Part shown: piece after piece, positions 1,251-63,386 of the stretch | Layout: every line of letters starts with the position of its first letter | How positions within the stretch are numbered: position 1 is the stretch's first letter | DNA from: Microbotryum violaceum | Lineage: Eukaryota | Direction: 5' to 3' | Length of the DNA: 64,000 nucleotides | Assembly: GCA_001244265.2 (NCBI GenBank) | Contig: CDLV01000012.1 | Coordinates: 992,001 to 1,056,000 of the forward strand | Position numbers and translations under genes: made by a program | The notes under the pieces: generated by a model | What the model was told of the DNA's origin: nothing | Database searches by the model: none | Seen by the model: the letters and a program-made list of their open reading frames with translations, nothing else

Positions 1251-1640
1251 CACATGCGTGCGCGAAACTCATGGATGCCATATGGAAAAACGCCGTATGT
1301 CTGCCAAGACCAAAGTTACCTTGCACCGTGAACGGCTCCCTTCTGATTTCAATCAGCATCGATTGAAATTGTTATTATTTTTGCCAGCCCCTTCACAACT
1401 GGACTACACAGCCAAAAAAAGCCAGCAATTTCAAGCGATGCGGAATCAGAAGGGAGCCATTTAAGGCGCAAGGTAACTTTGCGTGTAGTTAGTTGTGAAG
1501 GGGCTGGCAAAAATAATAACGATTTCAATCAATGCTGATTGAAATCAGGAGGGAGCCGTTCACGGTGCAAGGTAACTTTGGTCTTGGCAGACATACGGCG
1601 TTTTTCCATATGGGCTCCATGAGTTTCGCGCGCGCATGTG
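1251..1640. mobile_element. non-autonomous foldback MITE, Tc1/mariner/pogo-like (TA target duplication)
   Basis: Near-perfect ~160 bp terminal inverted repeats (1251-~1409 and ~1483-1640; CACATGCG...CGCATGTG) flanked by TA at 1249-1250 and 1641-1642. The same peptide appears on both strands in the ORF track. No coding capacity. Confidence 0.85.
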
Positions 1641-2205
1641 TAGGGGCTCAAATCGGTGAAGTGAGCTATAGCAACTTCGCTACAGCAATATCACAGACCA
1701 CTGACAGGATTTTCTCGTCGGACTTGCATCGTCGTGATTTTCTGGGCCAATCTTGTGGTAACAGGCGCTCATCTGTTTCAACGAAAACTTTGACTTGCAA
1801 AATCGCTACTTCTGTCACAGACCGATTTGGAGCGAGCGATGCGTTGGTGGCTGTAAGGTATGCGCCTCTGATGTGCATAAAATACAATTTGTCGTTCTTA
1901 AAAGCAAGTCGTAATTAGAACTCGACAATTCTAGCTACTCAGAGACTATTTATGGGGCTGTTCTGTAAGGCATCCCCTTGCAGTCGTGATCGGACTTGTG
2001 CGGACATTTCCCGCCATGTCCGTAACGCAGACCGCCTTTGAGGCTGCGGTGCGTGCACGAGATCTGTGGTAGGAAGATGAAATCATCATAAGTCCTGCCT
2101 TACACATATGTTTCGGTAGCCATCCGAGGGAAAAAAGAGATAGCTTGGGCATGTTCTAGGCCTGCCCGAAGAAATTACCGGCTGCAGCAAAACAACAAAA
2201 GAAAA

Positions 2206-2287
2206 TGCCCAGTGGCGGGATCGAACCGCCGACATCAGACTTAACGCGTTATTAGGTCTGCATCATAACCGACTAGATCAACCGGGC
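2206..2287 (-). tRNA. tRNA-Ile (anticodon AAT) with an 8-nt intron
   Basis: Cloverleaf: acceptor GCCCGGT/ACTGGGC plus discriminator A, D-arm ATCT-AGTCGGTTA-TGAT, anticodon stem CAGAC/GTCTG with CT-AAT-A (anticodon 2253-2251), intron ACGCGTTA (2249-2242), T-arm GGCGG-TTCGATC-CCGCC, then a TTTT Pol III terminator. Confidence 0.92.
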
Positions 2288-2346
2288 TTTGGACGAAGAG
2301 ACTGGCTCTACCTGGCATATCGATTAATGACATTTACCCCAGATGA

Positions 2347-5181
2347 CATCATCAGAGTATCCGGCTCGCTGATGGCGAGCTCACCACTGACATGGAGCGC
2401 ACGCTCGAGCACACCCATTCTCATTTCCAGCAGCACTACCTTGTCGAAGCGAAGGATCCGGAACAGGTCGTGACGATGCGGGATGAGCTCTTGGGACCCA
2501 TCAGATCAGCAAGACCTTGTGACGACCCGCTTTCCGACGCTCGCTTCCTTCGGCGGTTCTCGAATTCGCACGCCGACATTCTGGCCGAGCCCATCAGCGA
2601 TGCCGAGGTGCTCGCAGCGATTCGAACCACGCACGAAGGTCGATCTCCGGGTCCTTCAGGGGTCCCCTATGAGATGTATCGAGCCTGCCCCCTGCTTTGG
2701 GCCCCTCTCTTGACTCGAGCCTACAACGAGCTGATTACTCGAGGCTCCCTTACTCCACAACAGAGCCAGGCCAATGTGCGCCTCTTGTTCAAACACAACA
2801 AACCTGGTGCAGCGCGGTGCGACCTCAAATCGTATCGTCCGATCACCTTGCGGGAATGCGACTACAAGATCTTCACCAAGGTCTACGTGGCTCGTCTGAA
2901 CCGGATCCTCCCCGATGTTCTTCCGGCCGGACAGCATGGGTTCGTCAAGGGGCGAAGACCAGCGGACGCGGCTTTGCATCTGCGGCTCCTGATCGATGAG
3001 ATTAGGGGTCGTGGGGCAGAGTTCCCGACAGCAGCGCTCCTCTCCTGGATCAGAGCTCGGCTTACGACATGGTCGAGCACGACTGGGTCTTTGCGGTGTT
3101 TGAGGCTCTCGGCGCGCCGGAATCTTTCCAGCGCGTCTTGCGGATGCTCTACAACGGCGAGACGTCCACAGCGCGGTACATTGTCAACGGTTTCCTTACC
3201 GAGACGGTGCGACTCCTGTGCGGTCTTGGCCAGGGCGATCCTCTCTCTTCTTCTGTCTGGGATGTGGTATTCCAACCCTTCCTTGATTCTCTCAGTCGAC
3301 GCAACATTGCGCTGACTATCACTCTTCCGGAGCTGGCTCATCGTCCGCAGACTCGATGCATCACCAATTTGGCGTTCGCGGATGACGCCGTCGTCGCTGT
3401 TGCTGGGCCGGAAGCTATTGCTTCGCTCGAGGCGTTAGCTCGGGATTGGCGACTCGCGACGAACGGACGTCTAAACACCGACAAAACTGTGGTGATGCCA
3501 TTGGGCGCGACGTTGTGGGATCGCGCGGACTTGTCCAAACTGTCGTTCGTGGCACCGGACGAGTCTCTTCCCTGGATCGGTCTCCAGTTTGCGCCTGACG
3601 GCAACAACAGGCTGGGATTCCATGATCTTGAGCGAAGGGTTGATCGAGTGATTCTATCGGTGCGCGACCGATGGATGACGCACCATACCCGGGCTTTCTA
3701 TCTTAACCGCTACGGCATCTCCAAGGTGCTGCACTCTCTCTCCGCCGACATCCCGCCATCCGAAGTGATCAAGTCGATCGAGCGCAAGCTTGCTGACTTT
3801 GTGAAGGGAGGCCCGCGGCGCAGCGACTACAAGCAATCGGTCGTCTTCACGGCACGGGCACGAGGCGGTCTCAGCGTCGTGAGCATCCAGGATGTGGTGG
3901 ATTCAGTCTCGGTACGGATCTGGGATGTGCTGGCCGGCGGGTCAACTGCGATTTGGGGCGATCTGGCTCGGAGTTCCATCCGGCGAGCGCTTCCGACCTT
4001 TGACTTTGCTGCGGATCTGTGGACGTGGAGGAACGCCGACGCACCCCGGGAGCTACATCCCCGCTGGCGAGCGGTGCTCTCGGTCGCTGAACGCTACCCT
4101 GCCGTCGTCGATCCTGCCAAACTTTCGGTCTCCAATCTTCTTTCTCTTTCCCCCTCCAACCGGGTCTGCATGACTCGCGGGCGTTCTCGGAGCAGGATAA
4201 GCGTTTGGCGAAGCATTTCAGTTTCGAACGCACCATCGCTGACATCTATGCTCGAGCTCAATACCCCGCAGCTCCAACGGTGCCCTGGACCCCTGAGAAG
4301 CATCCCCAAGGCGACGGCTCGGAGCTGTCCAACCTTTGGCAATGGAAGCGCGATCAAGTCCAGGCGTGGATCCAGGTCGCAGGCGATCGCTTCATCCCGC
4401 CGCTTCCGCCTCCTGTTCCCGTCCTCGCACGTCGACCACCCGTCATTCGTGTCGTTGGAGCACCTGGAGCCCGGCCCGGCGGTCCCCTCGAGCACATCTT
4501 GCCCAGAGCGACTCCGGTCGGCATGCCTGATCAAAGACTTCCCCTCCCCTCCGCCCCCTTGCTTGCTAATCAGTGGAGAATGTTGAGCTTGGACAGACCC
4601 TACACCATTGCGCGACTTCGACGCGTCATCAACCATCGACGTTTCGACGACACACAACGCCCTGGATCACTCGCCACACCCAAAGAAAGGCGACTCTTCT
4701 GGGGGTGGTTCCACACCGGGCCCGCCACGGCCCGCGAGCGCGAGGTGCACTTCAAGCTGGCGTACCACTTCACGCCAACGCGGAAGCGCCAGTTTGTGCA
4801 GCGGCATGGCGACTCGGCCTGCTGCCTTGTGCAGGCATGCAGCCTGGCAGGGGTGGAGGATGACTTTACTCACTTTTGGCATGATTGCCCTGACTCTTCT
4901 CAATTTTGGCAAGCAGCTAGGTCCATTATCTGCGACGCGCTGGGGTCGTGTCGATCCTCGACCTCGACTACACGGCACTTCAGATCGAGCACGGCCTCCC
5001 TCGACTGCGCGCTCGCCTTCCGACGTCGAAAAAGCGTCCAATCCGCGCCTTCATTGCGCTGGCGCTCGACACTCTCAGCAACCGACGCTGGGATCTCCAT
5101 CGCCACGCCAGAGCGATGTCGAGCATGGACAAGGAGATGGCGGGACTGAAGGAGAGGTTGGAGCTCAGATTGGCGCGATGA
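2347..5181 (+). mobile_element. 5'-truncated non-LTR retrotransposon ORF2 (L1/Tx1-like reverse transcriptase plus C-terminal CCHC zinc knuckle), frameshifted
   Basis: RT motifs SPGPSG, YRPITL...DYKIFTK, QHGFVKGR, LDQSSAYDMVEH, GQGDPLS and LAFADD; C-terminal C..C...HFWHDC. Split over ORFs 2392-3315, 3069-4586, 4205-5149 and 4948-5181 by -1 shifts at ~3045, ~4152 and ~4944. No APE endonuclease, no ORF1, no introns. Confidence 0.93.
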
Positions 5182-6974
5182 AGTAGATGTCCCTCCCTCC
5201 CTATCCAAGCAAAAACCAAACCCCCAAAAAATCACAAGTCCCTTTTCCCTCCTTCTCAATCTCCAAAATGTCTCCCAAACACGCCAGAATACTGAACCTG
5301 TTTTCTCTCGCTCTTTTTGCCATTCCTCCTCATAGGCTTCCGTACTCCCAGGAGCCTCGGGTTCTTTGCGCCGGCGGGCATTGTCGCCTTTGGTTCGAGC
5401 TTCTGCCACATCACGATGACACACAGCGAAAACGGATCCCCTTGGCCCTCTCCTGGACTATACCGTGAGTTTTCCACTCCTCTCAAGGGCCGGGTCTGTC
5501 TTCTCTTTCGGTCGAGCGACCCCGTGATCTCCTGTTCAAGGCCGGCACAAACTGCCTGCGTGGCTCGCCTCTCCTTGCTTTGCTGCTCGCTCGGAGTCGC
5601 GGCCCCGCGGCGGGTGACTCGGGTACCGAACCGCCATACACATCCACACTCGAGCGAGGTCCCACCCAATGACATCACCGTCGTGGGCCTCATGCTCCTT
5701 CTTTCCCCAGTATCTGCGGTGATTGGGAACCACCTGCACGTACAAGGGGACTCGAGTGTGCGTTCCGAGATTGGGAGTACGCCGCAGGGAAGCGAGGCCC
5801 CTGCGGAAGGTATACCCCGCCCTTGTCTCCAGCCGCGCGCCGGTGTTGACGGCCACCCGCCCGCGCTGCACCCGACCGAGGCGTGTCCAATGGACTGTCA
5901 CATGCTCCGTGACTTTCCCCGGAAATCTCTGGATTGTGTGTTTTTGTGCGAAGTAGGCCTGTTTCGCAGTTGCAGTCATTGGAATGGGGGTGATCTGGGG
6001 TCGTGCGGTCGCGAGGGGGGGCCGACTTTGGTAACCGAAAAGGGGTTTGGAATCCGCGGTGGAGATCCAGCGCAGACGGGTACAAGGGGTATGTGATTGC
6101 TGCGGTCGCAGGGGGTTACATTCCCCCTTTGGACCACGTGAATCATTTGGATTGAGCGGGATGTTTGTGCCATCGGAGGCCTTGTTCGACGCGTCTCAAA
6201 GAATTAAGGGGCTTCAAGGAGTATGGCGGTCTCAGGGGGGGGCTGAAGTCAAAAGATCGAAGAAGGTTCAACTGTACGACTATAATCGGATTCGCCTGTA
6301 CAACACATGTACCATCACCAACGACTCATCCATCTTTTCCCGATTCCTTGTGTATAATCTTCAACCTTCCTTTCATTCGTCTCTGGGAGGGAGCAACCGT
6401 GGGTGGGGGGGACTTGAACTCGGATGTATCGGGTTGGTCTGTTCTGCTAGTTACAACGCATCAAGCGGCGGTTGTGGTCATCATCGTGCATACTGGGCAG
6501 CTTCTCCTTCATTTCCATAGGGGGTTTTCTCGTCTTGCAAATTCGCGATGAGTTTCAAACAAATAATAAATAAATTATAGGCCTGGGACTTCGCGGGTCA
6601 GGGTAGCTGCGCAGTCGCTCTCCTGTCGTTGTCTCGACCGAGTTGGGAAGTGGCGGCGGGGTGGGCCTCTTGTCGTTAGTACACTAGTTGGTTTCCTTTC
6701 TCTCTCTGTGTCTCCTTCTCTCTCTCATTCGTCTCCTGGGGGGGGGGGGGCAACCGCTTGGCTGGGCACTTGAATCCGAAGTATCGGATTGGTGGACTTG
6801 GCCCGTTTCTCGCATCTTGCCGGCGGTTTGTGTTATCATCATCGATTTCCATCTAGATTCTCCGTAGACCAAAACAGGGGACAGGAATGGAGGCAATATA
6901 CATCTATGATAAACAGTTTCTACCCAGTCAAACCCAAACCAAGTTCCCATAAATAAATAATAAAAATAATAAAA
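5182..6974 (+). mobile_element. probable long 3' UTR / A-rich tails of the non-LTR element
   Basis: Non-coding stretch after the ORF2 stop, with G-runs, ending in (TAAA/TAA)n-like tracts at ~6557-6575 and ~6949-6974. A candidate TSD CTGGCAT lies at 6975-6981 and 2312-2318. Confidence 0.45.
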
Positions 6975-7452
6975 CTGGCATCATGAGAGGTTTGGGGAAA
7001 GGTTAGGTGCTTTTGTTCTCCCGGCGACCGCCGTCTAGCGTTCTGCGGGCCAGGGTGTTCTCTCTACCTGACTACTTCGACCGCTGCAAGTTCTGGTACT
7101 TGAATATTAAGACCAAGTTTCAGTTGCAAGCTGCCGCTTGCGCAGCCGCTACGGTGATCCGAAGTGAACTTCCTGGTTATTGCTCAACCGCTTCGATCAT
7201 TTGGATCTTGAGTAAGTGCGGTGTTGATCCGAGCACTTGCTGACACGCGCCGATAATCGATGATTGCCCGACAAGTTTAATTGATAGGAATTGACGGACG
7301 AATGGAAGCGGAGTAAACACATCATTATATGTATATATATGGGGTCATGAATATGTGGGTTGGTGCCAGCTAACGAAGCCTTCCGAAAAAGTTAGAGCGC
7401 TCAAAGCAGCCAGTCGCTCGAGTACCTGCACCGTATGTAACAGCCACTCTGT

Positions 7453-13413: not shown

Positions 13414-16271
13414 ATGGCCACTATGAACAGTCCCGGTGTCTCTCCGACTCGCGCGCAGCTCAAGGCCTACACCGCCGCGTTCGCGTCGCATTACATGAGA
13501 AATCAGCCGCGCTATCAACGCCTGCTCATGCTCGGCTTCACGTCTTACGTCTGTTCGAACGTACGTCTACGAATTCCTCCTACCCTAGTATTGGTCCCGC
13601 TATACTGTTCAATAAGTGTGTGGTACTGTCCATTGAACGACATCGTGGTCTACTGCACAGACCTACATGGGTGTCACCGGTCGCGGCGCTGCAAAGAAGC
13701 CCCCACAACCCGGTTCAGCGGCCAAAGATCTGTCCAAAGATGGATCCGCCACGTCGACCTCGTCCAAAGGGCCGGCCGATGACGTCGAGGACGACAAGGT
13801 AGCCGGTAGTCGACGACCCAAGAAGAGACGGGGGCCTAGAGTTGAGGTTAGTCACGGGCGGTAGCGCCGGAGGCCTGGTCCAGGTCTGGGGGCTCTACCC
13901 GGCCCTCGCAAGACAGACCCGAACTGCGCTCGACGAAGGCGCATGGTCGCTTATAAAGTGGAAAAGTTGATCCTGTCCTCCTCATAGGTCGATGCTGTCT
14001 TCTTCGAGCGGCTGTCTAGGATACTGCGCATCGTGATTCCATCCAAGCGGTCCAAAGAAGCATCGCTGCTCGTGATCCATTCGCTCTTTCTCGTCCTTCG
14101 AACACTGCTGTCGCTTTACGTCGCGTCGCTCGATGGCAGTATTGTTTCTGCGCTTGTCAGGGCCAAGCCGCGCGAGTTCTTGTATCGCATCTTCTTGTGG
14201 ATGGTCAGTACTGCGAATCAGGCTAGCCCTTTCACCTCCCCATTGGACCTCTGCTTATGCGCCCGCATCTTCTGGCAGGCCGTTGCAATCCCCGCAACGT
14301 ACACGAACTCAATGTTGAGCTACATGCAAAGCAAGCTCGGTAAATCTCGACCTGTTATCGCCTGTGGGTGCGATCTGGGAGCAACGCTGACCGAATATCC
14401 TTCCCCGACAGCGATCGCGTACCGCACTCGGCTGATCAAGCGTGTGCACGAAATGTACCTCGAGGACACCACATTCTACGCCCTGGGCAACCTGGACGAC
14501 CGCATCAAGAATGCAGATCAGCTCATCACGGTCGACATACAGAAGTTCTCAAACTCGCTGGCAGAGATCTACTCCAACATTGCCAAGCCGGTGCTCGACG
14601 TCATCATCTACAATTATCAGCTTTCGCGGAACGTTGGAGCCGAAGGGCTTATTGGATTGACCCTCATCATTCAACTGTCCGCCGCACTCTTGCGCTTCGC
14701 CACCCCTCCATTCGGAAGGTACGCTGCCGAGGAGCAGCGACTCGAGGGTGAATACCGATTCGCCCACACACGCTTGCTCGAGAACGCCGAAGAGGTCGCT
14801 CTCTACCGCGGCTCGCTCGTCGAGAAGAACATCATTGAGCGCAGCTATTTCGCTTTGATCAAGCACGTCAATCGAATTTTCCGCATGCGCATGTTGCACG
14901 GACTCGTGGAGGAGGGCATCGTCAAGTGGGTGTGGGGCTCCCTCGGGCTGCTCATCTGCGCGATCCCCGTCTTTTTCAAGATCCCAGGCGCTTCGGGTGG
15001 TGTGGATTTCGGTGGTCGTACCGAAGGGTTCGTGACGAACCGTCGCCTCCTTTTGTCGGCCTCGGACGCGCTCGGCCGATTGATGTCGACCTATCGCGAA
15101 CTATCGGAGCTGTCGGGCTACACCCAGCGCGTGTCTGAACTGCTCGATACGATGGAGGAGACCAAGCGGGGCAAGTTCCAGAAGAAGCTAGTCAGTAGCG
15201 CCGGTACAGAGGAAAATGCGCGCGTCCTGCAAGGGCGAGGCACGTTCGTGCATTCGGACGACGAGATCATCTTTGATAAGGTCCCCATCGTCACACCGAA
15301 TGGCGACATCCTTATCAAGTCGCTGTCCTTCTACGTCAAACCAGGGGGCCATTTGCTCGTTATCGGTGGCAACGGTACCGGCAAGTCATCCTTGTTCCGT
15401 ATTCTCGGTGGTCTGTGGCCCATCTACGGAGGTACGGTCACCAAGCCGCCGGCGAGCGAGTTCACCTACATCCCGCAGCGACCCTACCTTTCACTCGGCA
15501 CACTACGGGACCAGATCATCTATCCCCACTCACGCAGCAAGATGATCGAACGAGGCGTGACTGATGCCGATCTGATGCGCATCCTCGCCAAACTTGAGAT
15601 TGATCACATCGTCGAGCGCGAAGGTGGCTGGGACGTACAAAGGGAATGGAGAGACGCTCTTAGCGGTGGAGACAAGCAGCGCATCGCCATGGCCCGCTTG
15701 TTCTACCACTCTCCCAAAGTGAACCGAAGAGGATGCCGTATCAATAAGTGCACGAGTTGACACAGTGGTTTCCAATTTACAGTACGCTATTCTCGACGAA
15801 TGCACGAGCGCCGTCACCCTTGCCGTGGAGAAGACATTTTACGATGGTGCCACTGGTAGGCCCAGTTTCGATTGCTGCTCGCGAAGACGATGCAGCCACT
15901 GTGCTGATTGAGCGTCATCATTGCCGTTGACTTGTTGCAGAGCTCGGCATTACACTTTTGACCGTGTCGCATCGACCTTCCCTGTGGAAGTACCACAAAT
16001 ACATCTTGCAGTACGATGGGCAAGGCGGTTATGCTTTCTGCCCCCTCGACGCCGAGAAGAGGCTCGCGTTGCAAGAAGTAAGCCCTTCCCGAGGTTGACC
16101 CATTGATTGAGACTAGGAACCGCACCCTGATCAGAACTTCTTGATCGCACGCCTAATCAGGAGAAGCAGGTGCTCGAGCAGAAGCTGTTGGAAGTGCCAC
16201 AATTGCAAGCGAGGTTGGAGGAGATGACGAGGGAACGAGCTGAGCGCGAGAAGCGGAAGGACTCTATCTAA
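13414..16271 (+). CDS. PXA2: peroxisomal long-chain fatty acid ABC transporter (ABCD family, Pxa2-like)
   Basis: ABC_membrane_2-type sequence ([30 protein letters not shown]), Walker [10 protein letters not shown], signature LSGGDKQR, Walker B YAILDE. Multiple GT-AG introns; stop TAA 16269-16271. The PXA1 vs PXA2 assignment is tentative. Confidence 0.93.
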
Positions 16272-24543: not shown

Positions 24544-26388
24544 ATGTCATTCGCAACACGCTCTCTGCTTCGCTCGTCGCGCTTCGTCGCTCCCCGCTTG
24601 GCGGTTCGCCAGCCGGTTCTGGCCCGTCGCACTTACGCGACCGGCGCCCCCGCTTCGGGAGGCAGCAACACGACCCTGTTCGCCTTGCTCGGTGCGGCCG
24701 CGCTCGGTGGAGGCGCCTACTATGCGTTCAGTGGTCACTCCGACTCGGACCCGACCAAGATCAAGGACGCCGCGTCTCCCCAGACGGTCGACTACCAAAA
24801 GTGAGTGCCCGGGGGGACCTGTGGCAGTGGTGCGCTCGGTCGACGGAGCGGGTGAGGCCGCGCTTGCTCCGTCGGCGGCTATCAGTTACCGCGGGAGAAG
24901 TGGTCTCATCTGTGTCGGTCCGCTACAGCGTCGACCGCGATTTTGACAGGGTACTCATTCGACCTTAACCTTTGATTGCTGGCAGGGTTTACGATGCTAT
25001 CGCCCAAGTGCTCGAGGCTGAGGATTATGACGGTGAGTGGGGATCGACAGCGGGCGGGCGCTTCTTTCAGCTTCGATTCCCGGAGTCGAGTCGGAAAAGG
25101 CGACGTTGCGATTGGCAGGGAGGGGTCCAGCGGATCCTTGCTAGTTATTGCTGCCCACGGGATGTGGGATCCCGAGTTACCTTGATGGCGGATGCCCATT
25201 CAAAGTTGGGCTTGTTTGACAGCAGACTCATCTCGGCTTATACTTGATTTTGTTCGACTGCAGATGGCTCGTACGGCCCCGTACTCGTTCGTCTGGCGTG
25301 GTGAGCCTGCCCTCTAGGTCCTTGACGCGCTATGCGGGTCACATTAACTAATGCTCTGGATCTCACGGCGATCACTAATCCGTTACTAGGCATGCTTCCG
25401 GTACCTACGACAAGACAACCGGCAACGGTGGTTCTAACGGCGCTACCATGCGCTTCGCTCCCGAGGTCGGTCTTAGATTCCGACCCCTCTTCTCTATCGG
25501 ACCGCACGTGTTCGTAAGATTGCTGACTTTCCTAGCCGTCGTCTCCCATAATATCGTCGCCCAGGCAAACCACGGCGCAAATGCCGGTCTTGATGTGGCC
25601 CGCAACTTGCTCGAGCCCATCAAGAAGCAATTCCCCGAGATCACCTACTCTGACCTGTGGACCCTCGCCGGTGTCTGCGCAATCCAGGAGATGGGCGGAC
25701 CTACGATCCCTTGGCGAGCGGGCCGCAAGGACGGCAACGTCGAGAACTGCACCCCCGACGGTCGTCTCCCCGATGGTGACAAGGGCGCGGACCACTTGCG
25801 CCACATCTTCTACCGCATGGGCTTCAACGACCAGGAGATCGTTGCTTTGTCCGGTGCTCACGCCGTTGGACGTTGCCACACTGACCGCTCGGGCTTTTCT
25901 GGGTACGTCCATTTTCGCTTGATCTCTCCTTTCTTTTTCGAGGAGGATAGTTCGGGAGAACTGACCCCTCTGTCTGGCATGATCTGTTCAGACCTTGGCA
26001 ACACTCGCCTACTTCTTTCAACAACGAGTACTACAAGCTTTTGCTGAATGAGAAGTGGCAGGTCAGTCGCATTCAGCCTGTCAGCGATCCATGCCGCTTG
26101 GTTGCTGACCTCTCTCTTCACGCATTCGCACACGCACACGCACAGTTCAAGAAGTGGAAGGGACCGATTCAGTACGAAGACAAGTCGACCAAGAGCTTGA
26201 TGATGCTCACGACCGACATGGCTCTGACGACGGACAAGGCGTTCCGACCGTACACGGAGCAATACGCCAAGGACGAGAACAAGTTCTTTGCCGACTTCTC
26301 CAACGTCTTTGCCAAGCTCATCGAGCTCGGTGTGCCCGAGAAGCAATTATCGGAGCCCCTCAAGCTCCGCCCTACTGGTAGCGAGTAA
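24544..26388 (+). CDS. CCP1: mitochondrial cytochrome c peroxidase
   Basis: Arg-rich presequence; [56 protein letters not shown]; multi-exon. Confidence 0.95.
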
Positions 26389-28451: not shown

Positions 28452-29041
28452 TCTGTGCTGGGCGGGTGTGGAGAAGGCGAGCGAGGGCGGGCTGGGCACT
28501 GCAACCGACCGCCGAACCGGGCTCGGAATCGGGACCGGCGGTGCACGGACCGCGCGTCCGGCCGGTCGAAAGGCGGCAGCAGGCGGCGACAGACCGCGAC
28601 AGGGACCGACAGGGAAACAACGGACCGCGGCCACGCATCAGCTGAGCGTGATCGCGCTTCCTTCGCCGCAACTAACTCCAAGTCTGCGCTTCAAAAACAG
28701 ATCCAGAAACCCGACACGTCTGGCATCGTTTTGGACTCACCCAGAGTACCTTACGGCTTGCGCAACGAGCGCCGCGCCCTGGACCGCGCCAACGCCGGTC
28801 TCGCTGCGAAGTAACGATCCGTCTCGATCCGAACGGGATAGCGTCGCCGGTCTCAGCCTTTGCCGAACCTCGACTTGATCCGCTTGGGCGTTTCAAGTTG
28901 TAGCATCCGATCCAACCCTGTCTGAATTCCGACGGCTTCTCCAGAGGAGGTACGTCCAGTTCGCTCCGTAGACACAAGCCGGGCGCCGTTTGACGATCGC
29001 CTTGGGCAGATATCTGTACATCGCTTGCTCACCAACCATTC

Positions 29042-31968
29042 ATGTCCCTTGGATGCCACGCAGCCACGACGATGAATTCAAGAGCATTGATCTCGAGATG
29101 CGGCTGCACAATCGCATCTTCGCGATCGCTGGCTAATACCCGACACCACCCCGCTTTGGCCTCTTCGAACTTGTGCTCCTCATCGTCGACCTCGATCCCA
29201 GCGCCGAGACCCTTCTCGTCGTCGAATTCCAGCTCAGCCGCCTTCTCAGACTACCGAGATCGGAAGCAAGACCGCGACCGAGACCGTGCTTATGATCGAG
29301 ATCCGAGAGGGAATGACCAGAACCGAGGCAAGGACGATACCCGCCCTACCCAATCCTACCCTGCCAGGAGGAACCCAACCTCTCCGACGTCCTCGCTCTC
29401 GTCGTCCACGTCATCACCATCATCGACCTTCTCAGCTCGCGAATTGTCGGCCCAATACCCCTTGAGGTCCAACTCCATCAAACACACTCGCCACGACTCG
29501 GACAGACCTACGCCGACGTTGCAACCTCGTGTCGGACGAGCCCTTCGCGAATGGCAGAAATTGTCACCCGAGGAAAGGAAGCGCGAGGACAGGGCTCGCG
29601 AACGGCTGCTCCGAACGATGAGCCCCGAGAAGCTGTACGCCTTGGAGAGGGAACGCGCGAGGTTGATTCAGATCAAGTTCGAAAAGAGGGATGCCGAAGA
29701 GAGGCAGCGATTGCTCAATAGTGCTAAGAACGTGGGAGCGACAGGGGTCGTCAGGAGGGTGAGCCAATTGACATCGACGTCGCCGCCCGGGAACAGCCGA
29801 GAGATGGTGCCCGGCCGAGTCAACTCTCGGCTGTTGACGTACAGGAACTCGGACCGAAATGCGGTACCCCCCGTTGTCCGGGGCGGAGTGCAACCCTCTT
29901 CCTCGGCCCAACGTAGGCCGGCTAGGAAACAACCTCGAGCCCTCAAAAAAGTCACCCTCCCCACCACCGTTCGTCTCGAAAATCTCACGCGCATCCTCGG
30001 AGTACGGCTACCAGCCTTGCAAAAGGCAATGCAACGCATCGGACTGGACAACGTCCGACCCGAGCGCCTCTTGACCGCCGAGGACGCCTCCCTCGTTGCT
30101 CTCGAACTCAACTTTGATCCCACCGTCGACGACGAGGCCGCCTTCGATCTTTACCCCTTACCCATCCTCGACGAAATCGAGCGACCGCTGAGGCCACCAA
30201 TCACAGGCATCTTTGGGCACGTCGATCATGGCAAGACTTCTTTGCTCGACGCACTGAGGCAAACCACCGTTGCCAAGGGTGAAGCGGGAGGGATCACACA
30301 ACACATCGGTGCATTTGAAGTCGAAGTCGATGCCATCGTTCGCAATCTCAGCAACGGCGGCAAGGACGGTACCGTTCCCACTCCGTCTTCGATCGAGCCC
30401 GACTCAGGCGCGACCATCACATTCCTGGACACGCCCGGCCATGCTGCGTTCACGGCCATGCGAGAACGTGGAGCAAGCGTGACCGACGTCGTCGTACTCG
30501 TCGTCGCTGCTGATGACGGCGTGAAACCTCAAACCGAGGAAGTCATCGGTCTCATCAAGAGTGCCGATGTGGGCGTCGTGGTCGCCATCACTAAAGTTGA
30601 CAAGCCTGGAGTAGATACGGTAAGCTTCCACGCATTGTTGCAGTCATTCGATCCTCGCTGACATTGCTGAGAGTTCATCTGCATCAGCTCAAAGTCAAGC
30701 AAGAACTGATGGCGGCCGGCGTGGAGATTGAAGATTTCGGCGGCGACATCCCCTGCGTTGAGGTATCCTCTGTCACTGGGCATGGTCTCCCCACCCTCGT
30801 CGAGACAATCTCTGCGATCGCCGAGATCCGCGAACTGCGAGCCGAGCGATCCGGCCGAGTCGAAGGTCGCGTCATCGAGTCCAGGGTCGAGAAAGGGCGA
30901 GGTAACGTTGCGACCGTGTTGGTGATGCGGGGTTGCTTGAGAGCGAGCGCCAGTCTCGTCGCGGGGACGACCTGGTGTCGAGTTCGATCGCTCATCCCTC
31001 CGACGGGAAAAGCGGTCTCACTCGTTTACCCTGGCCAACCGATCGAGGTGACGGGATGGAAAGATTTGCCTAGCGCGGGCGACCTCGTCCTGGAAGCCGT
31101 CAACGAGGACGAGGCTAAGCGAGCGGTCACAAACCGCGTCAAGAAGATCGAACAACAGAAGCTTTGGGAAGAGGTTGAAGTCATCAATGAGAAGCAGAAG
31201 GTCGATTCAGAGGTGGAGCTGATCCGGAGGGAGGAAGAGGCCAAAGCCAAAGCCAAAGGGCTGCATAGGAACGCCGCGATGTACGCTGGACAGGCTGCGG
31301 TCGAGGAATTGACGGGCGGTGAAGGTGCGGGTGTCAAGGAGTTGATCCTCCTCATCAAGGCTGACGTCAGTGGTACGGTCGAGGCCGTCGTTGGATCGCT
31401 CCAAGGTATTGGCAACTCGGAAGCCAAGGTCAAGATTGTCAGCTCGGGTGTCGGCGATGTGCAGGAGTCGGACATCGAGATGGCCCGAGCGATAGGTGGC
31501 GCCGTCGTTGCGTTCAACGTACGCACCCCTGCATCCGTCATGAAACTTGCCGCTCGACCGCCACATCCCGTTGCCGTCTACGCCTCATCAATCATCTATC
31601 GCCTCGTCGATGTGATTCGGACCGCTGTGGCCGACTTACTCCCCAAGACGATCGAGGTGCGCGTTCACGGTGAAGCGCTCGTCCAGCAACTTTTCTCCAT
31701 CACCATCAAGGGTGTCAAGGTCCCCAAGGTCGTCGCTGGGTCCAAGATCTCGAACGGGGTCTTTCAAAAGACTCGAAAGGCTCGCGTGGTGAGGAATGGT
31801 GAAGTCATCTTTACTGGGACTGTGGATACGCTCAAGCACGTCAAGAAGGACGTAACCGAACTCACCAAGGGAGTCGAATGTGGTATTGCTTTGGAAGGTT
31901 TCGAAGGCTTCCAGGAGCAAGACTTGATTCAAAGTATCGAGGAGATCGAAGTAGCGAGAACTCTCTAG
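29042..31968 (+). CDS. IFM1: mitochondrial translation initiation factor IF2
   Basis: [57 protein letters not shown]. Single intron 30620-30687. Start is 29042 or 29072. Confidence 0.95.
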
Positions 31969-49749: not shown

Positions 49750-51545
49750 TCAATCACCAAGATCAGCCAATCTGGACGGCTTGGCACTTTTGCCCCTAAA
49801 CCAAGGACCACGACCCTCTTGTTGCTCCGACAACAACTTCCAGAAACCGCAATTCTGCCCAGGAACGACCTGGGATGCCGAGCAGGTCCAGAAAAAAATC
49901 ATATCGTCACCTTCTTGCCCCTCTGCCACGTCCGAGTCTACCTTCGGCTTATCCTTCTGCAGATAAGCTCTCGCCCGTCCTTTACCGTCCGGTCTGAGGA
50001 TCGTAGGCAATTTGCATTGACAATGTGGTGTTCCAGCGTATGCTCCGCCAGTAAGTGGCACCGACGTTTGGACGGGCAAAGGCGCATAGTCGGGGCGGTA
50101 ATGCCGGAACGTGATCTGTTTGAATTGGGGAAAAGCCGAATTCGTTAAATCTGTACGGCGGCCTCCATCTAGGACTGAAGCAGCTTCAGACGAAACTAAC
50201 ATTGATTCGTTCGCGGTAGCGTTCTTCTTGACCCGGAATCCTGAAGGTGTCGAGTGCCGAGACGGGCTGGATTGAGTGCTTGTAAAACTCTTGCGTGCCC
50301 GGGAGCATCAGGCATAGTGAGTTGTGGGGCAGCACGAGATCGAGCGATCTCATCTCGATGCCAGGCAAAGGCATGAAAGGTCGCAGACGAAAAGGTCGGG
50401 TACATCCCAAGGAGAGCGACGCGATGGTCGGGAACGGGCCAAGATACGTGAGGACATCCGAATGGGGTCCGACGCTTTCCTTGGCGCCTCGGTAGCAGTT
50501 GGCAGCGGCGACGTTGGGTACCCATTCACCCGCGGTGTACTCGAGGGGATGGCGCCGACGGGACCCAAGTATCAAGTTGACCAAAGGCTGGATCAAGGAG
50601 CGCGCCTGGTCCATAAGTGGAGTGAAATAGCGCCCCTGGCGTTTCGTGCCGTTGTACCAGTGCGTGGACAAGGCGACGTTTGTTGCGTTGACCAGATCCT
50701 CGTCTCCGACTGAAGGCGCTTTCTCGAGGTAGAAAGAGGTTGTGTGGGGCGATTCAACTTCGCGGTCGAACATGTACCACTTATTACGTCCCCCTGCAAT
50801 CGATGATAAAGTTAATGACGAGGCTCAACTGGGCTACTAGACATGGGCGGCTCTTCCGATTTGACTGACATGGCTCTTTGCTTCCTTCTTGCGCACGTCC
50901 ATCGTTCTCGTCGAGCATAGATTGGAAAAGCATGCTGGCCAACTCCTTTGGCAGGACGTTGGGGATGAGAATGATGCGACCACGAGTGTGTTTGGCAATC
51001 GCTTCCGGGGTTGACAAGGTCAAAGGAGGCAGATGGGTCGGCGTTGTACCCGCCCCTGTCGTAGTATTCGCCAAGCCGCCGAGTGGTATGGTCGTAGTCG
51101 AATTCGCACTCAATTTCGGCGTCTTAGACGTTGGCTTTCGCTGCAACAGCTGGTACGCATCGACGGTCGAGGTTAAAGTTGTTTCGACTTCGCGCTTGGG
51201 CGAAGTCGGTCGGGTCGATGCCTCTCCTCGCGATCGGGCAGGCAGCCGCATCGTCGACGACGAAGCTGGTTTGAGCCAGTGATCAAGCTTCTCTATGCGC
51301 TTCCTCTTGACGGCCCGAAGACCCGTGCTGTCCCAGGTGGTGACGAGTCGCCCGGCGGCGCTGACGGGTTTGACATTGTCGTCGCGTCCCAGCAAAGCGG
51401 TGGTCGCGCGCTCGAGGTCGCGCGACGACGCGACGAAGAAACGTTGCAGGGTCGACCGAGGCAGCTGTGGAAAGATGGCTGCGAGCGTGTCGATGGCTTC
51501 TTGGTGCTCCTCTGGTTTGATCTCGGTCACGGTACTCGACGACAT
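49750..51545 (-). CDS. CUE-domain / AlkB-like 2OG-Fe(II) oxygenase / GRF zinc-finger protein
   Basis: N-terminal LAAIFP...DLERATTALL (CUE); ANCY...VGPHSD...IASLSLG...HNSL..M...QEFYKHSI...RIN|.TFR (AlkB); CQC...FFWTC...CGFW (zf-GRF). Confidence 0.85.
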
Positions 51546-54106: not shown

Positions 54107-56921
54107 ATGCTCGTCTCGTCCTCGCTCGCGGCGCTCGTGTTGCTCACCACCTCGGCACTCGGATCGTCCCTGCACGGTGATGCGCAACAACAACAGCAGC
54201 AGCAGCAACTTCACCGGGGCCGCAAGTTCAGATTAGCCAAGCGTCTGGAGCCCGTCTCGATCCAAGGTGTCGTCAATAAGAAGTGAGTATTCTGGTTTTT
54301 TATCTTTGTTGCCACGGCCGGGGACGACCCCTCGCGTTTTTCGCCCGGTGATCGTTAGGGCCGCGCGCGTCGCGGGCCGCCACGCTCTGCCGGTTCGTCT
54401 ATGTCTCGGGTCGACTCTGCACAGACCCTCGCATGCATCGATCTCTTGACGGCAGATCCACTTGCGCACATGCTCTTGGATGACTTAAGGCTGTGTCTGC
54501 GCTGCACCAACCGCACCTTTCACGCCCTGCCAATGTCGCTGGATGTTTTCGTGTCCTTGGTTCCTTGGTGTCAGCTGCGCGTAGTCTGGGCCGAGCGTCG
54601 ATCGCGTTTCGGGCGGTTGAGCGAACAACGCGCGCCACGCGCGGCGCGTCGCATCGACTTGGCCCGTGCCCGCCTCGGCAAAACGCGTCGCGCAGCGGGC
54701 TTGGTCCCGATGCTTTTAGCCTACCGGCTCTGTCGCTCGGCAGCGTTCTAGGTTCAAACTTTTCGCTGCCCCAAGCTGTGCTTCCACCTTCCAGAGTTGT
54801 GCCCAGACACCCTGATTCCCGACCAGAACACTGACTGCGGCTTGTTTGTTTTTTTCCTCGGCGTTTTCTCTCCCTCCCAGATTCGTCAACAACGACTTGG
54901 CGCGCAGTTCGCACAAGTATGCGACCGCCTCCGCAACCAAGATCATCAACTTTGCGAGCAAGAACACCACCGCCAAGATCCGTCGTCATATGGCCGCCTT
55001 GTCCGAGGCAGCTCAAGCCATGGAGAAGCGATCAATCGAGTCCCAGAAGTCGTCAAAATTTGACAAACGGGCGCCCAAGGGCTCCCTCGACCTCACCGAT
55101 TGGAGTTAGTCACGTCCTTCCTCTCTGTGATTGTCATGTTATGGGACAGTTCAACCCATATTCGCAATGTCATTGTGCTTTCATTTGCTCGTACCTTCAT
55201 CTGAATCGAAGCTGATGCGCCCCTCGTCCCGGTCTTCCAGTCACCGGTGGTCACGACACGGTCTACTACGGACAACTAAGCATCGGAACACCTTACCAGA
55301 CCTTTGAGATTGATTACGATACCGGCTCCGCGGAGTGCGTACCGGACAGCGTTTCGTGCCGAGCGAGTCAACACCGTGCTAACCCTTGCCTTTTCCACCG
55401 CTTGTTAGCCTTTGGGTCCCAGGTCAGAGCAACCCGACCAAGCACACCAAGTTCAACGACGACAAGTCGACCTCGTTTGAGCAGTCCAAGGTCAAGTGGT
55501 CGGTCAATTACGGTACCGGCAGCTCGACGGGTCTCATCGTTCGAGATCGCGTGCAATTGGCTGGCTACAATTACGCGACCCAAATCTTTGCGCTCGCCAG
55601 TGCATCCGCTCAGGTGCTCGAGAACCTCCCCGTCGATGGTGTTATGGGCTTCGCCTTCTCTTCGATCGCCTTCATGGGCTCGCCGACGATGTTGGAAAAC
55701 CTGATCAACCAAGGCTCGGTTTCGACTCCTGCCGTCAGTTTCTACTTCAAGCGCGCGCGTGACACGACTTCCAAGACGAGCGGCACCCTCGATGGCGGTG
55801 AGATGTGCGTCGGTTGCATCGACTCGTCCAAGTACAGTGGAGCTTTGAGCTACACCGCCGTTTCGGATCAAGGGTACTGGCAAGTCCCGTCCGATGGTAT
55901 CGCCGTCAACGGCGCCGTTGTTTCCGGCACGAGCATGCAAGTTGCGGTCGACACGGGAACGACCCTCATCTATGTCCCCGTCGCGGTCGCTGACAAGCTC
56001 TACACGTCGCTTAACGCCAAGAAGTACGCCGATGGTTCGTACACGGTCCCTTGCGCCGCCGCCTTCCAGACCCTTGGTCTCTCGTTCGGAGGCAAGATCT
56101 ACAACATCCCCCTCGCCGATCTTTTCTTGGGTTACGCCGACTCGAGCGACAAGTCGCAGTGCAGCCTCGGTATCACCGGTGTCGACAATACCAACGCCGA
56201 TGGAGATACCGTTGCCATTGTCGGTGTCTTGTTCCTCAAGGCCGTCTACAGTGTCTTCACCTACTCGCACGGCGGAAAGCCTGCCGTTGGCTTTGCGCAG
56301 TCCATCACGAGTGGCGTCGGCTCGGGCAGTGTTTCGGCTGCGACCTCGCCCGCCGCAACCCCGGCTGGCACTGTCACGACTTCGGGTGGCAAGAACGGGT
56401 CCACCTCGGCGACGACGACGGCCACGACCAAGTCCTCAGCCGCTTCGAAATTCGTTGCAACACAACAGGCCGTCTCGATCGCCGCTCCTATCGTTCAGTC
56501 GGCCTCAAAAGCCGTCACAGCCAAAGCGGCCGCGGCAACTAGCAGCGGAAGCGGCAGCACCTCAACCGGCGGCAGTGACAATGGCGGCAGTGACGATGGC
56601 GGCAGTGACGATGGCGGCAGTGACGATGGCGGCAGCGGCCAGGGCGTCATCGGAGGCTTCACCTTCTCCTACTTTGACGCGTCCTCGACCGCTTCTGCTG
56701 CTCCTGCGGCTACAACCCCCCCGACAGAGTCCGTCACCACGACCGAAGCATCGCCGACACCAGTTGCGGACTCCGCCTCGCCCAGTGCTTCGCCGACCGA
56801 GTCGGTTGTCGATTCCCAAGCCTCGACGTCTTCGACGAGCGCTGCTTCTACTTCCTTCGCCCTGTCGGGCTTGACAGCCATCGCCTCGGTTTTCCTCGGC
56901 GTGTTCGTTGCCATGGCATAA
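54107..56921 (+). CDS. pepsin-like aspartic protease, secreted and probably GPI-anchored (yapsin-like)
   Basis: Signal peptide MLVSSSLAALVLL; YYGQLSIGTP..DYDTGSA|DLWV; second motif VDTGTT; Ser/Thr-rich tail and hydrophobic C-terminus FALSGLTAIASVFLGVFVAMA. Confidence 0.93.
56569..56636 (+). repeat. 15-bp coding minisatellite (GGSDD)x4
   Basis: gcggcagtgac(a/g)atg tandem units within the protease tail. Confidence 0.85.
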
Positions 56922-57321: not shown

Positions 57322-60116
<2,795 letters not shown>

Positions 60117-61410: not shown

Positions 61411-63386
61411 ATGTGAGTTGCACCACCACACCAGGCGCTGACCAGTCTCTTGCTGCTCTGCAAGCCCGTCCCTCCCCCCCGACCCGATCAGACCGCTTGC
61501 GCGTCCACCCACCACCGACCCATACCGTACGACCCCCGCCGTCGCCACACGACTCCACAGTCGCATCCACCTGCGAGCTCGTGTCGCATTCACCCATCGC
61601 TGACCTCCTCGCATCCTCTCCGTACTCAGGGTCTCGATCACCTTCAAGACGCTGCAACAAAAGCAGTTCAAGATCGAGGCGCAACCGACCGACACCGTCA
61701 GTATTACTCCTACAACATCTCGTCCCATCCGTTCTCAGCGCGCTCACAGTCTCTACCTTCCTGGCTCACCACAGGTGCTCGACCTCAAAATCAAGATCCA
61801 AGCCGAACAGGGATTCGAGGTTGCATCTCAAAAGATCATCTTCAGCGTGCGTTCGGATCCGCAAAGTCCAGCTTCAAACAGCTGACGTCCGACTCTGGTC
61901 TCTCTATACAGGGCAAGATTTTGGCCGATGACAAGACCGTTGCGGATGCCAACTTCAAAGAAAAGGATGCAAGTTCAACACACACACACAAGTCCCCTCG
62001 ACCCCCCGGAACGATCGAACCGAGCTGATTCCTCCCTCCTTCCCCACTTCTTGTACTTAGTTCTGCGTCGTAATGGTCTCCAAGCCCAAGGCCGCACCTG
62101 CTCCTGCCGCTGCTCCTTCCACATCGGCAGCATCAGCCGTCCCTGCTACACCTGCTCAAGCCTCAGCACCCGCTGTAGTGCCCAACGCCCCCGCCCCCGC
62201 CCCCGCTGTACCCAATTCGGCCGTCCCCGAAACCCCGTCGGCATCGACCAACAGCACCGTCCTGGACACCGTCGAGACCCCGGCCGTTGCAGGAGCGTCG
62301 ACGGGCGAAGAAGCATCCTCGTCCAGTGACACGTCCTTTCTCATGGGCTCGGCGTTGCAATCCTCGATTAACGAGATGGTCAGCATGGGCTTCCCAAGGG
62401 ATCAGGTCATGAAGGCCTTGAAAGCGAGCTTCAACAACCCGCATCGTGCTGTCGAGTACCTCATGACTGTGAGTCAAGTCAGCTACAGCATCATTCTCGA
62501 TGCTCCCATTGCAAAGGCTGATGCATTTGTTGAATTTGTGCCTCCAGGGTATCCCCGAGTCGTCCGAACCAGCTCCTGGACCGGCTGCGGCTGCGGCTGC
62601 TGGGGCCCCGGGTACACCTTCTCGTGCCGGTGGTAACGCTGCGCCTCTTGCTTCTACACCTGCACCCGCTGCGGCGGCGGCCCCCGCGGCTGCCCCGAAC
62701 GCCCCTCGTAAGTTTTGCTGCTCTTGGAGCCCGCGGTCGGCGCAGTCTAGGCCCGAACCGTAGCTCACCCTATCGCCACACGATGGTCTTCGACAGGCAA
62801 CCTTTTTGAAGTACCCGCACCCGTAGCTGCTCCTGCTACAGCAGCTGCTACGACAGGGGCTGCCCGAAGTGGCGCTGCCGGTTCGAGCGAGCTCGCACAG
62901 TTGGCGCAACAACCCATCTTTGGCCAATTGCGTTCGTTGGTGCAACAGAACCCGGCGTTGCTGCAACCTTTCTTGCAACAGCTCGGCGCTTCAAATTCCG
63001 AGTTGTTGAGCATCATCGATAGGAACCAAGCTGAATTCGTGAGATTCTTACAAGAAGGACAAGAAGGTGGGGCCGCGGGTGGGAAGGGCTGGAAGGCTTG
63101 TTGGATCAGTTCGGCGATGATGAGGAGGGCGAGGATAGGAATGAGCATTATATCCAGGTGACGGAGGAGGAGAACCAGGCGATTGATAGGTTGACCGCGA
63201 TGGGCTTCGATAGGGAGGTCGTCATTCAGGCATACCTTGCTTGCGATCGGAATGAGGAGCTGGCCGCGAACTAGTGAGTTTTGCGCTGGTAAGGCGAGTT
63301 AAGTGCGCAAATTTTGACTAACGACCACACCACTTCCTTGGGTTCGCTCTAGCTTGCTTGAGCACGGCTTTGACGATATGGAGTAG
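61411..63386 (+). CDS. RAD23: UV excision repair protein Rad23 (UBL-UBA-XPCB-UBA)
   Basis: AT|G split start, [17 protein letters not shown] (UBL), [26 protein letters not shown] (UBA1), [20 protein letters not shown] (XPCB), [32 protein letters not shown] (UBA2). -1 shift in a G run at ~63081. Confidence 0.96.

Follow-up and report, generated by a model that had tools for sequence, protein, structure and literature searches.

A 5'-truncated L1-like retrotransposon copy in the spacer upstream of a Microbotryum tRNA gene, probably an untargeted insertion

As a potential landing place for mobile elements, the upstream spacer of a transfer RNA (tRNA) gene is considered here in the anther-smut fungus Microbotryum violaceum, in a stretch of 64,000 nt (contig CDLV01000012.1 of the GenBank assembly GCA_001244265.2, positions 992,001 to 1,056,000), hereafter called the window, with coordinates counted from its first letter. 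In this spacer lies a long interspersed nuclear element (LINE), hereafter copy A, which is a dead-on-arrival, 5'-truncated copy of a multi-copy Microbotryum L1-like element, whose second open reading frame (ORF2) combines an apurinic/apyrimidinic endonuclease (APE), a reverse transcriptase (RT) and a CCHC zinc finger. As such, copy A is an ordinary truncated insertion of a known kind of element. Respective to its location, the explanation we consider probable is an insertion without targeting, or at most with a weak bias, that was kept in permissive DNA next to the tRNA gene; a single copy cannot show that the LINE family aims at tRNA genes.

The limits of copy A were delineated with Logan contigs from four coded runs, namely X17, X2, X5 and X8 (labelled as four organisms), which were placed on positions 1500-6500 of the window, the loose contig ends considered being 24 of 172. 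Copy A is composed of (i) an ORF2 remnant at 2352-5181 on the forward strand, comprising the linker that follows the APE, the RT and the C-terminal CCHC region (RVT_1, tblastn and contigs), (ii) a 3' untranslated region (UTR) of about 1.4 kb at 5182-6556, delimited by contig alignment and depth, and (iii) an A-rich tail of AATAA type at 6557-6579, read from the sequence and matched to the tail of a second LINE fragment (fragment B, below) by the direct-repeat family D6. At the 5' side, contigs of the multi-copy family start to align exactly at 2352 in all four runs with extra sequence preceding, and this sequence before 2352 continues the ORF2 frame as in the related protein P0002 just ahead of QSIRLADGE. 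Judged from these alignments, copy A is 5'-truncated at 2352, near residue 392 of an ORF2 relative of 1335 residues, and since the truncation falls inside ORF2, the copy lacks both ORF1 and the APE endonuclease. In a first-pass annotation of the same DNA, LINE homology had been placed from about 2350, some 60 bp from the tRNA gene and divergent from it, which agrees with a start at 2352, a gap of 64 bp (2288-2351) and opposite strands; it had also been pointed out that the TRE5 elements of Dictyostelium insert with their 5' end facing the tRNA gene; in copy A, the end facing the tRNA gene is the truncation point within ORF2 and not a true 5' end. At the 3' side, the same annotation had closed the element at 5181, which is too early: the repeat contigs continue to at least 6137, one multi-copy contig of 5,290 nt (X2 record 13) aligning unbroken over 2352-6137, the depth over the LINE stays high and even rises up to 6500, and the A-rich tail follows at 6557-6579. 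No Pfam match was obtained for the ORFs in 5182-6556.

The LINE family is multi-copy in Microbotryum: in the four runs, the family contigs are 7.5-38 times deeper, by word depth, than the unique contigs alongside, a depth ratio that does not amount to a copy number. Inside the 64-kb window, no further copy of the LINE was found by blastn or tblastn. Three frame shifts interrupt ORF2 in copy A, near 3043, 4149 and 4941. Compared with the family contigs of the four runs, the window is one base short after 3043, 4149, 4941 and 5346, the first three of these differences coinciding with the three tblastn frame shifts, and all four correspond to contracted C or G runs, where the window has CC, C5, G4 and C3, respectively. 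These contractions may be either real slippage mutations or long-read assembly errors; whichever their origin, copy A is non-autonomous because it is truncated.

The identity of the element rests on several lines of comparison. In the window copy, the Pfam family RVT_1 (PF00078) is recognised in two overlapping frames, with E-values of 2.3e-5 and 2.9e-11, and it reaches 1e-20 in close relatives. In tblastn, the Microbotryum ORF2 proteins P0001 and P0002 cover 2353-5178 at 97-100% identity, in successive segments of frames 1, 3, 2 and 1. Among 76 homologues, 71 carry the name of a Microbotryum species (M. silenes-dioicae, M. saponariae or M. intermedium) and one that of Sporobolomyces. Full-length relatives of about 1330 residues exhibit an APE endonuclease (PF03372), the RT (PF00078) and a C-terminal zf-RVT domain (PF13966), in this order. 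While PF03372 is present in the relatives P0023, P0009, P0070, P0029 and P0033, it was not detected in the closest ones, P0001 and P0002, at E<=1; PF13966 is present in P0023, P0070, P0029 and P0033. In the protein alignment of the family, C1212, C1215, H1224 and C1229 are invariant and form a CCHC motif after the RT; the corresponding segment of the window copy gave no Pfam match at E<=0.01 and is 99% identical to P0002. Among proteins of solved structure, the best relative is human L1 ORF2p (E 1.9e-25), ahead of R2 proteins (3.7e-18 and weaker). With an RT, an APE and a CCHC motif in the family, and an A-rich tail and a target-site duplication (TSD) at the copy, the element can be assigned to the L1-group APE-type retrotransposons without long terminal repeats (non-LTR). 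The first-pass description as an L1/Tx1-like LINE stands for the L1 group; Tx1 and L1 proper are not separated by domain order or by the ranking of PDB matches. L1-clade elements had been reported earlier from Microbotryum violaceum (Hood 2005, as cited in PMC3956500).

Ahead of the endonuclease, the relatives extend further than ORF2 proper. The longer gene models, i.e., P0029, P0033 and P0002, correspond to a single ORF of about 1950-2080 residues with some 735 residues preceding the endonuclease. In this N-terminal part no Pfam family was found at E<=1; by eye, a Cx2Cx4Hx4C knuckle can be made out in it, and the stretch leading up to the endonuclease is a long acidic linker. From these sequence features, it reads as the ORF1-like part of the element. 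Beyond Microbotryum, a metagenome scan with an alignment of nine family proteins confirmed 399 of 596 candidate stretches; among the best 80 of these, all are L1-like at just 21-31% identity and none belongs to the Microbotryum family. Over these 80 loci (417 kb), ARAGORN returned one doubtful tRNA-Trp with a 61-nt intron, which is uninformative on the Microbotryum family.

On the other side of the spacer, the tRNA gene occupies 2206-2287 on the reverse strand and is best read as tRNA-Ile(AAU), on the basis of Rfam RF00005 and of ARAGORN with introns allowed. In a focused Rfam scan, RF00005 matches 2206-2287 with 46.9 bits, well above its gathering score of 29, and E 3.3e-9, over the complete model (1-71) and with an insertion in the anticodon loop; in the 64 kb, it is the sole RNA-family match at E<=0.01. 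ARAGORN with introns returns the identical coordinates, the label Asn(att) and an 8-nt intron at position 36. When the intron is set instead at the canonical 37/38 position, the loop becomes CU-AAU-A, whose anticodon AAU makes the isotype Ile, which we take as the best reading against ARAGORN's Asn(att). The first-pass call of a tRNA-Ile with its 5' end at 2287 is borne out in this way, RF00005 confirming the gene and the canonical intron agreeing with the isotype. The gene was detected neither by ARAGORN with default settings nor by the whole-window Rfam scan at gathering thresholds; introns had to be allowed, or filters relaxed, to recover it. By sequence inspection, a B-box-like GGTTCGATCCC lies inside the gene, and directly 3' of it a T-rich stretch, TTTTCTTTTGTTGTTTT (2180-2205, reverse strand), contains a TTTT run that is likely a terminator of RNA polymerase III (Pol III). 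A cloverleaf scoring above threshold, an internal promoter box and a T-run terminator together suggest a functional nuclear tRNA gene.

Between this gene and the LINE, an intact upstream spacer is retained at 2288-2343 (reverse strand, as the gene), defined by its sequence and by contigs at single-copy depth in the four runs. At 2323-2328, i.e., at -36 to -41 from the tRNA, it carries an AT-rich ATTAAT that the insertion left undisturbed; this hexamer may play a TATA-like role and is placed where TFIIIB and TBP would be expected. The flank 2001-2334 as a whole is at the level of a single copy in the four runs. Because the gene has an intron and a terminator T-run and sits in a single-copy flank, it is neither a retro-copy nor part of a repeat.

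The insertion is bracketed by a short direct repeat. The 14-mer TGACATCATCAGAG at 2344-2357 and the 14-mer TGGCATCATGAGAG at 6976-6989 are identical at 12 of 14 positions and abut both junctions, the left one straddling the truncation junction and the right one beginning one base past the tail of fragment B. At both ends, the initial 8 nt belong to the flank and so constitute the duplication, TGRCATCA; its left copy TGACATCA occupies 2344-2351 (-57 to -64 relative to the tRNA 5' end) and its right copy TGGCATCA occupies 6976-6983, both on the forward strand and both recognised by direct-repeat matching. The last 6 nt are LINE on the left (TCAGAG) and flank on the right (TGAGAG), which corresponds to junction microhomology. 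Such microhomology is typical of 5'-truncated L1 insertions. For random 100-nt targets from the window, a match as good arises in 2.75% of cases, and when the match must abut both junctions the chance estimate is about 0.002. An insertion site at -57 to -64, counted from the 5' end of the mature tRNA, with a TSD that brackets copy A and fragment B together, is credible on this ground. The duplication formerly proposed at 25-31 bp upstream finds no counterpart, given that no direct repeat of at least 11 nt joins 2288-2352 to 5181-5300. A duplication immediately after the tail of copy A (6580) was also considered and set aside, no comparable match being present there.

Contig joints from 1910 to 5995 (three runs) and from 1899 to 5995 (one run) were considered as a possible empty-site allele and rejected on three counts: an allele of this shape would delete the tRNA gene and its unique flank; the joints carry 16-27 extra letters with repeats on both sides; and the 3' side matches with 15-17 mismatches and 10-18 gaps. 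The contig placement extends to 6500 and ends short of the right TSD at 6976, a joint from 2351 to 6984 lying outside its reach.

With the gene, the flank and the duplication described, the adjacency could in principle stem from something other than the insertion of a LINE into a resident spacer, namely a rearrangement, a mis-assembly or a mobile unit carrying tRNA-like sequence. The assembly is imperfect here, the four contracted C/G runs being typical of long-read assembly error, and in two runs the contigs of the unique flank end at 2346, 5 nt before the start of the LINE. On the contrary, the duplication brackets the LINE composite alone, the flank 1859-2346 was recovered with 0 differences in an independent run, and the tRNA gene has the intron, T-run and single-copy flank already mentioned. 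As for such units, the relevant passages of Kojima's survey report no tRNA-bearing Helenus elements in Microbotryum (PMC10886601). Altogether, we regard this origin of the adjacency as highly improbable and retain the insertion of a LINE into a resident spacer.

Besides copy A, the duplication encloses fragment B, which represents the 3' end of a related LINE, at 6580-6975 on the forward strand, and is recognised by alignment and by the direct repeats D4, D6 and D9. Its last ~280 bp, aligned with the end of copy A (last ~230 bp), show 68% mean column identity. Fragment B has its own A-rich tail of AATAA type at 6949-6974, in which TRF reports an array of the 9-nt unit AAATAATAA at 6955-6974. 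Since A and B are bracketed by one duplication, B would either be a 3' transduction that came with A or a later insertion into the tail of A. For the latter there is a precedent, as Zorro3, a fungal L1, integrates into poly(A) tracts (PMC7175516).

The question remains whether the closeness to a tRNA gene is meaningful. The rival to an untargeted insertion is that the LINE family, or a sub-lineage of it, homes to Pol III genes, in convergence with TRE5-A and NLTR-B, the tRNA-targeting elements of dictyostelids. Most plausibly, the ORF1-like N-terminal region would then hold the integration machinery at tRNA genes by contact with TFIIIB or TFIIIC, the first-strand nick would fall ~55-65 bp upstream and the element would point away from the tRNA gene. 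The geometry of copy A favours this proposal by its opposite orientation and by a duplication at -57 to -64; for comparison, the insertion distance upstream of the mature tRNA sequence is 44-54 bp for TRE5, which has the opposite orientation, and 39-64 bp for NLTR-B (PMC5911963). The setting is suited as well: the genome of M. lychnidis-dioicae is compact, with 7,364 genes in 26.1 Mb and a mean distance of 1.18 kb between coding sequences (PMC4469406), and genome compactness is the setting where tRNA homing evolved elsewhere (PMC5006619). As to the protein, a targeting function could sit in the ~735 residues that precede the endonuclease in the relatives.

Several points of this analysis weigh against the untargeted insertion that we favour, some of them directly to the benefit of homing. 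Firstly, this one copy has the geometry of TRE5 and NLTR-B insertions, i.e., LINE on the forward strand, tRNA gene on the reverse strand and integration within ~40-65 bp upstream, and the sole LINE, which is also the sole sequence encoding transposable-element proteins, in a gene-dense 64 kb adjoins the sole tRNA gene. Secondly, with the figures of M. lychnidis-dioicae, namely 26.1 Mb, 134 tRNA genes and 392 LINE copies (PMC4469406), uniform placement would bring, in each genome, 0.40 LINE ends to within 100 bp of a tRNA gene, and would give a TRE5-like distance and orientation in just 0.03 copies, which counts for homing. Thirdly, the target TGRCATCA, in a G+C-rich context, is unlike the A/T-rich sites at which an L1-type endonuclease acting alone should cut, so that something besides sequence may have chosen the place; this again counts for homing. 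Fourthly, the duplication on which the distance depends is recognised by sequence similarity, with 2 mismatches in 14 positions, and the contigs placed on 1500-6500 yielded no empty-site allele. Finally, the copies that speak for insertion elsewhere, presented below, come from diverged sub-lineages, about 90% and 68% alike, and the junction at 5995 that identifies one of them could equally be explained by another repeat inserted into a LINE.

The same evidence is nonetheless tempered by how copy A came to attention. Homing is judged here on one copy, singled out for its tRNA adjacency among very many windows, and the expectation of 0.03 is suggestive for one genome but indecisive in a scan of many windows. 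In addition, copy A itself is dead and 5'-truncated. Elsewhere, contigs at single-copy depth in all four runs join the repeat of about 1851-1979 (up to 1899/1910), plus 16-27 nt, to a diverged LINE 3'UTR that begins at position 5995, and this locus is read as a paralogous 5'-truncated LINE elsewhere, adjoining another repeat. Within ~74 nt of the 5' junction of this paralogous LINE, which is ~90% alike, no tRNA gene is present, the abutting sequence being, over 74 nt or more, a repeat unrelated to tRNA. Likewise, fragment B sits 4.3 kb from the tRNA gene, away from the tRNA-proximal position. Both loci are weak contrary hints that relatives insert elsewhere. Judged by the order of locus tags, homologues in annotated genomes are often found in runs on small repeat-rich contigs, and plain repeat clusters look alike. 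Finally, the table of tRNA-targeting elements in a 2018 review features no fungal non-LTR element (PMC5911963). On balance, homing of the family or of a sub-lineage appears possible but rather unlikely.

For the untargeted insertion that we favour, the following course can be proposed, in which the order of events, the details of target-primed reverse transcription (TPRT) and the reason for the location are what we infer from the structure of the locus. The element would have inserted by TPRT into the upstream spacer of the tRNA-Ile(AAU) gene, with its transcription directed away from the gene. Reverse transcription would have proceeded from the A-rich 3' tail and been halted, or joined, within ORF2, the 5' end of copy A being sealed at the 6-nt microhomology. 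Fragment B would have been carried along as a 3' transduction with A or have entered later the A-rich tail of A. The 64-bp promoter-proximal spacer and the tRNA gene were left intact, and the copy may have survived because a gene-dense genome offers few sites where an insertion does no harm, the neighbourhood of a tRNA gene being among them.

As regards the surroundings, the 3' side of the tRNA gene harbours repeats unrelated to the LINE. A foldback element, resembling a miniature inverted-repeat transposable element (MITE), extends over 1248-1643 with two 153-nt arms (1248-1400 and 1491-1643) that are 96% complementary and lie 90 nt apart, and in the four runs the contig depth over 1500-1666 is well above that of a single copy. 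A short repeat at about 1851-1979 has the top word depth in 1500-6500, with values of 1351, 5407, 2457 and 411 for the individual runs; numerous distinct flanks follow past ~1850 and 1979, and internal length variants of 54-68 nt occur. The contig placement also has holes in depth, e.g., 1667-1833, which is empty in three runs. The presence of non-LINE repeats on this side of the gene fits a permissive pocket as well as active targeting. The remainder of the window (13988-63158) is densely filled with ordinary genes, where Pfam recognises, among others, an ABC transporter (13988-15757), a peroxidase (25379-26385), an IF-2/eIF5B-like GTPase (28994-31965), a 2OG-Fe(II) oxygenase (50189-50824, reverse strand), an aspartyl protease (55383-56918), a Cef1/Myb splicing factor (57325-59933, reverse strand) and a Rad23-like UBA/XPC-binding protein (62061-63158). 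From the 127 ORFs of at least 130 amino acids in the window, the eight located in the LINE were set aside (the four on the forward strand being covered by a separate Pfam search), and no transposon domain was found in the other 119 at E<=1e-5.

As it stands, this analysis provides corrected element boundaries and a defined target site for a truncated LINE insertion. Should the family prove to home, which we doubt, it would be the first non-LTR retrotransposon of a fungus to home to tRNA genes and an independent re-invention, in a third kingdom, of the strategy of TRE5 and NLTR-B. The ORF1-like region of ~700 residues would then be a candidate TFIIIB tether, and a second, independent Pol III-directed TPRT system would be at hand in a compact and genetically tractable genus of plant pathogens. 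Such a system could show how the Pol III machinery steers a LINE endonuclease, and could serve to ask whether genome compaction predictably yields safe-harbour targeting. In open-access papers and bioRxiv, no report of a fungal tRNA-targeting LINE, or of a link between a Microbotryum LINE and tRNA genes, was found; the tRNA-targeting non-LTR elements listed in the table of the 2018 review are from dictyostelids only (PMC5911963), and a 2016 survey spans dictyostelids and Protostelium (PMC5006619).

Among the closest known systems, the fungal L1-clade LINEs and human LINE-1 resemble copy A in kind. With Zorro3 of Candida albicans and the fungal L1 LINEs, the Microbotryum family shares the clade, as judged by domain order, and an ORF1-like Cx2Cx4Hx4C knuckle, while copy A has the A-rich 3' tail and the frequent 5' truncation of fungal L1-clade LINEs; the presence of fragment B in the tail of copy A recalls the integration of Zorro3 into poly(A) tracts (PMC7175516). 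Zorro3 differs in that it is without a link to tRNA genes, whereas the Microbotryum family exhibits one long ORF of ~2070 residues and an AATAA-type tail instead of pure poly(A). In human LINE-1, ORF2p is the best match of solved structure, although the sequence similarity is only distant. As in classic L1 insertions, the locus exhibits 5' truncation, junction microhomology, a TSD and a possible 3' transduction. Unlike human LINE-1, the Microbotryum element has a target that is not TTTT/AA-like and a 3'UTR of ~1.4 kb.

As regards location, the likeness is with elements that exploit the vicinity of tRNA genes. In yeast, Ty3 and Ty1 resemble copy A in safe-harbour insertion upstream of tRNA genes within a compact fungal genome (PMC5911963), but they differ in mechanism, i.e., integrase-based integration of double-stranded cDNA and not TPRT, as well as in distance, since Ty3 inserts at the transcription start and Ty1 up to ~1 kb away, unlike copy A. 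A further parallel is provided by TRE5-A of Dictyostelium discoideum and NLTR-B of Polysphondylium pallidum, which, as the Microbotryum family, have an L1-group ORF2 with APE, RT and zinc finger. Like them, copy A is found upstream of a tRNA gene and is transcribed in the opposite direction; its duplication, at -57 to -64, falls within the range of NLTR-B (39-64) and just outside that of TRE5 (44-54) (PMC5911963). They differ from the Microbotryum family in belonging to another kingdom, in that a TFIIIB-binding ORF1 is unsupported in Microbotryum, and in that at least one related copy has no tRNA gene within ~74 nt. While the targeting of TRE5-A and NLTR-B was demonstrated by dozens of copies together with experiment, the association with a tRNA gene in Microbotryum is known from a single truncated copy, which shares with these dictyostelid elements the type of ORF2, the orientation and, for NLTR-B, the distance.

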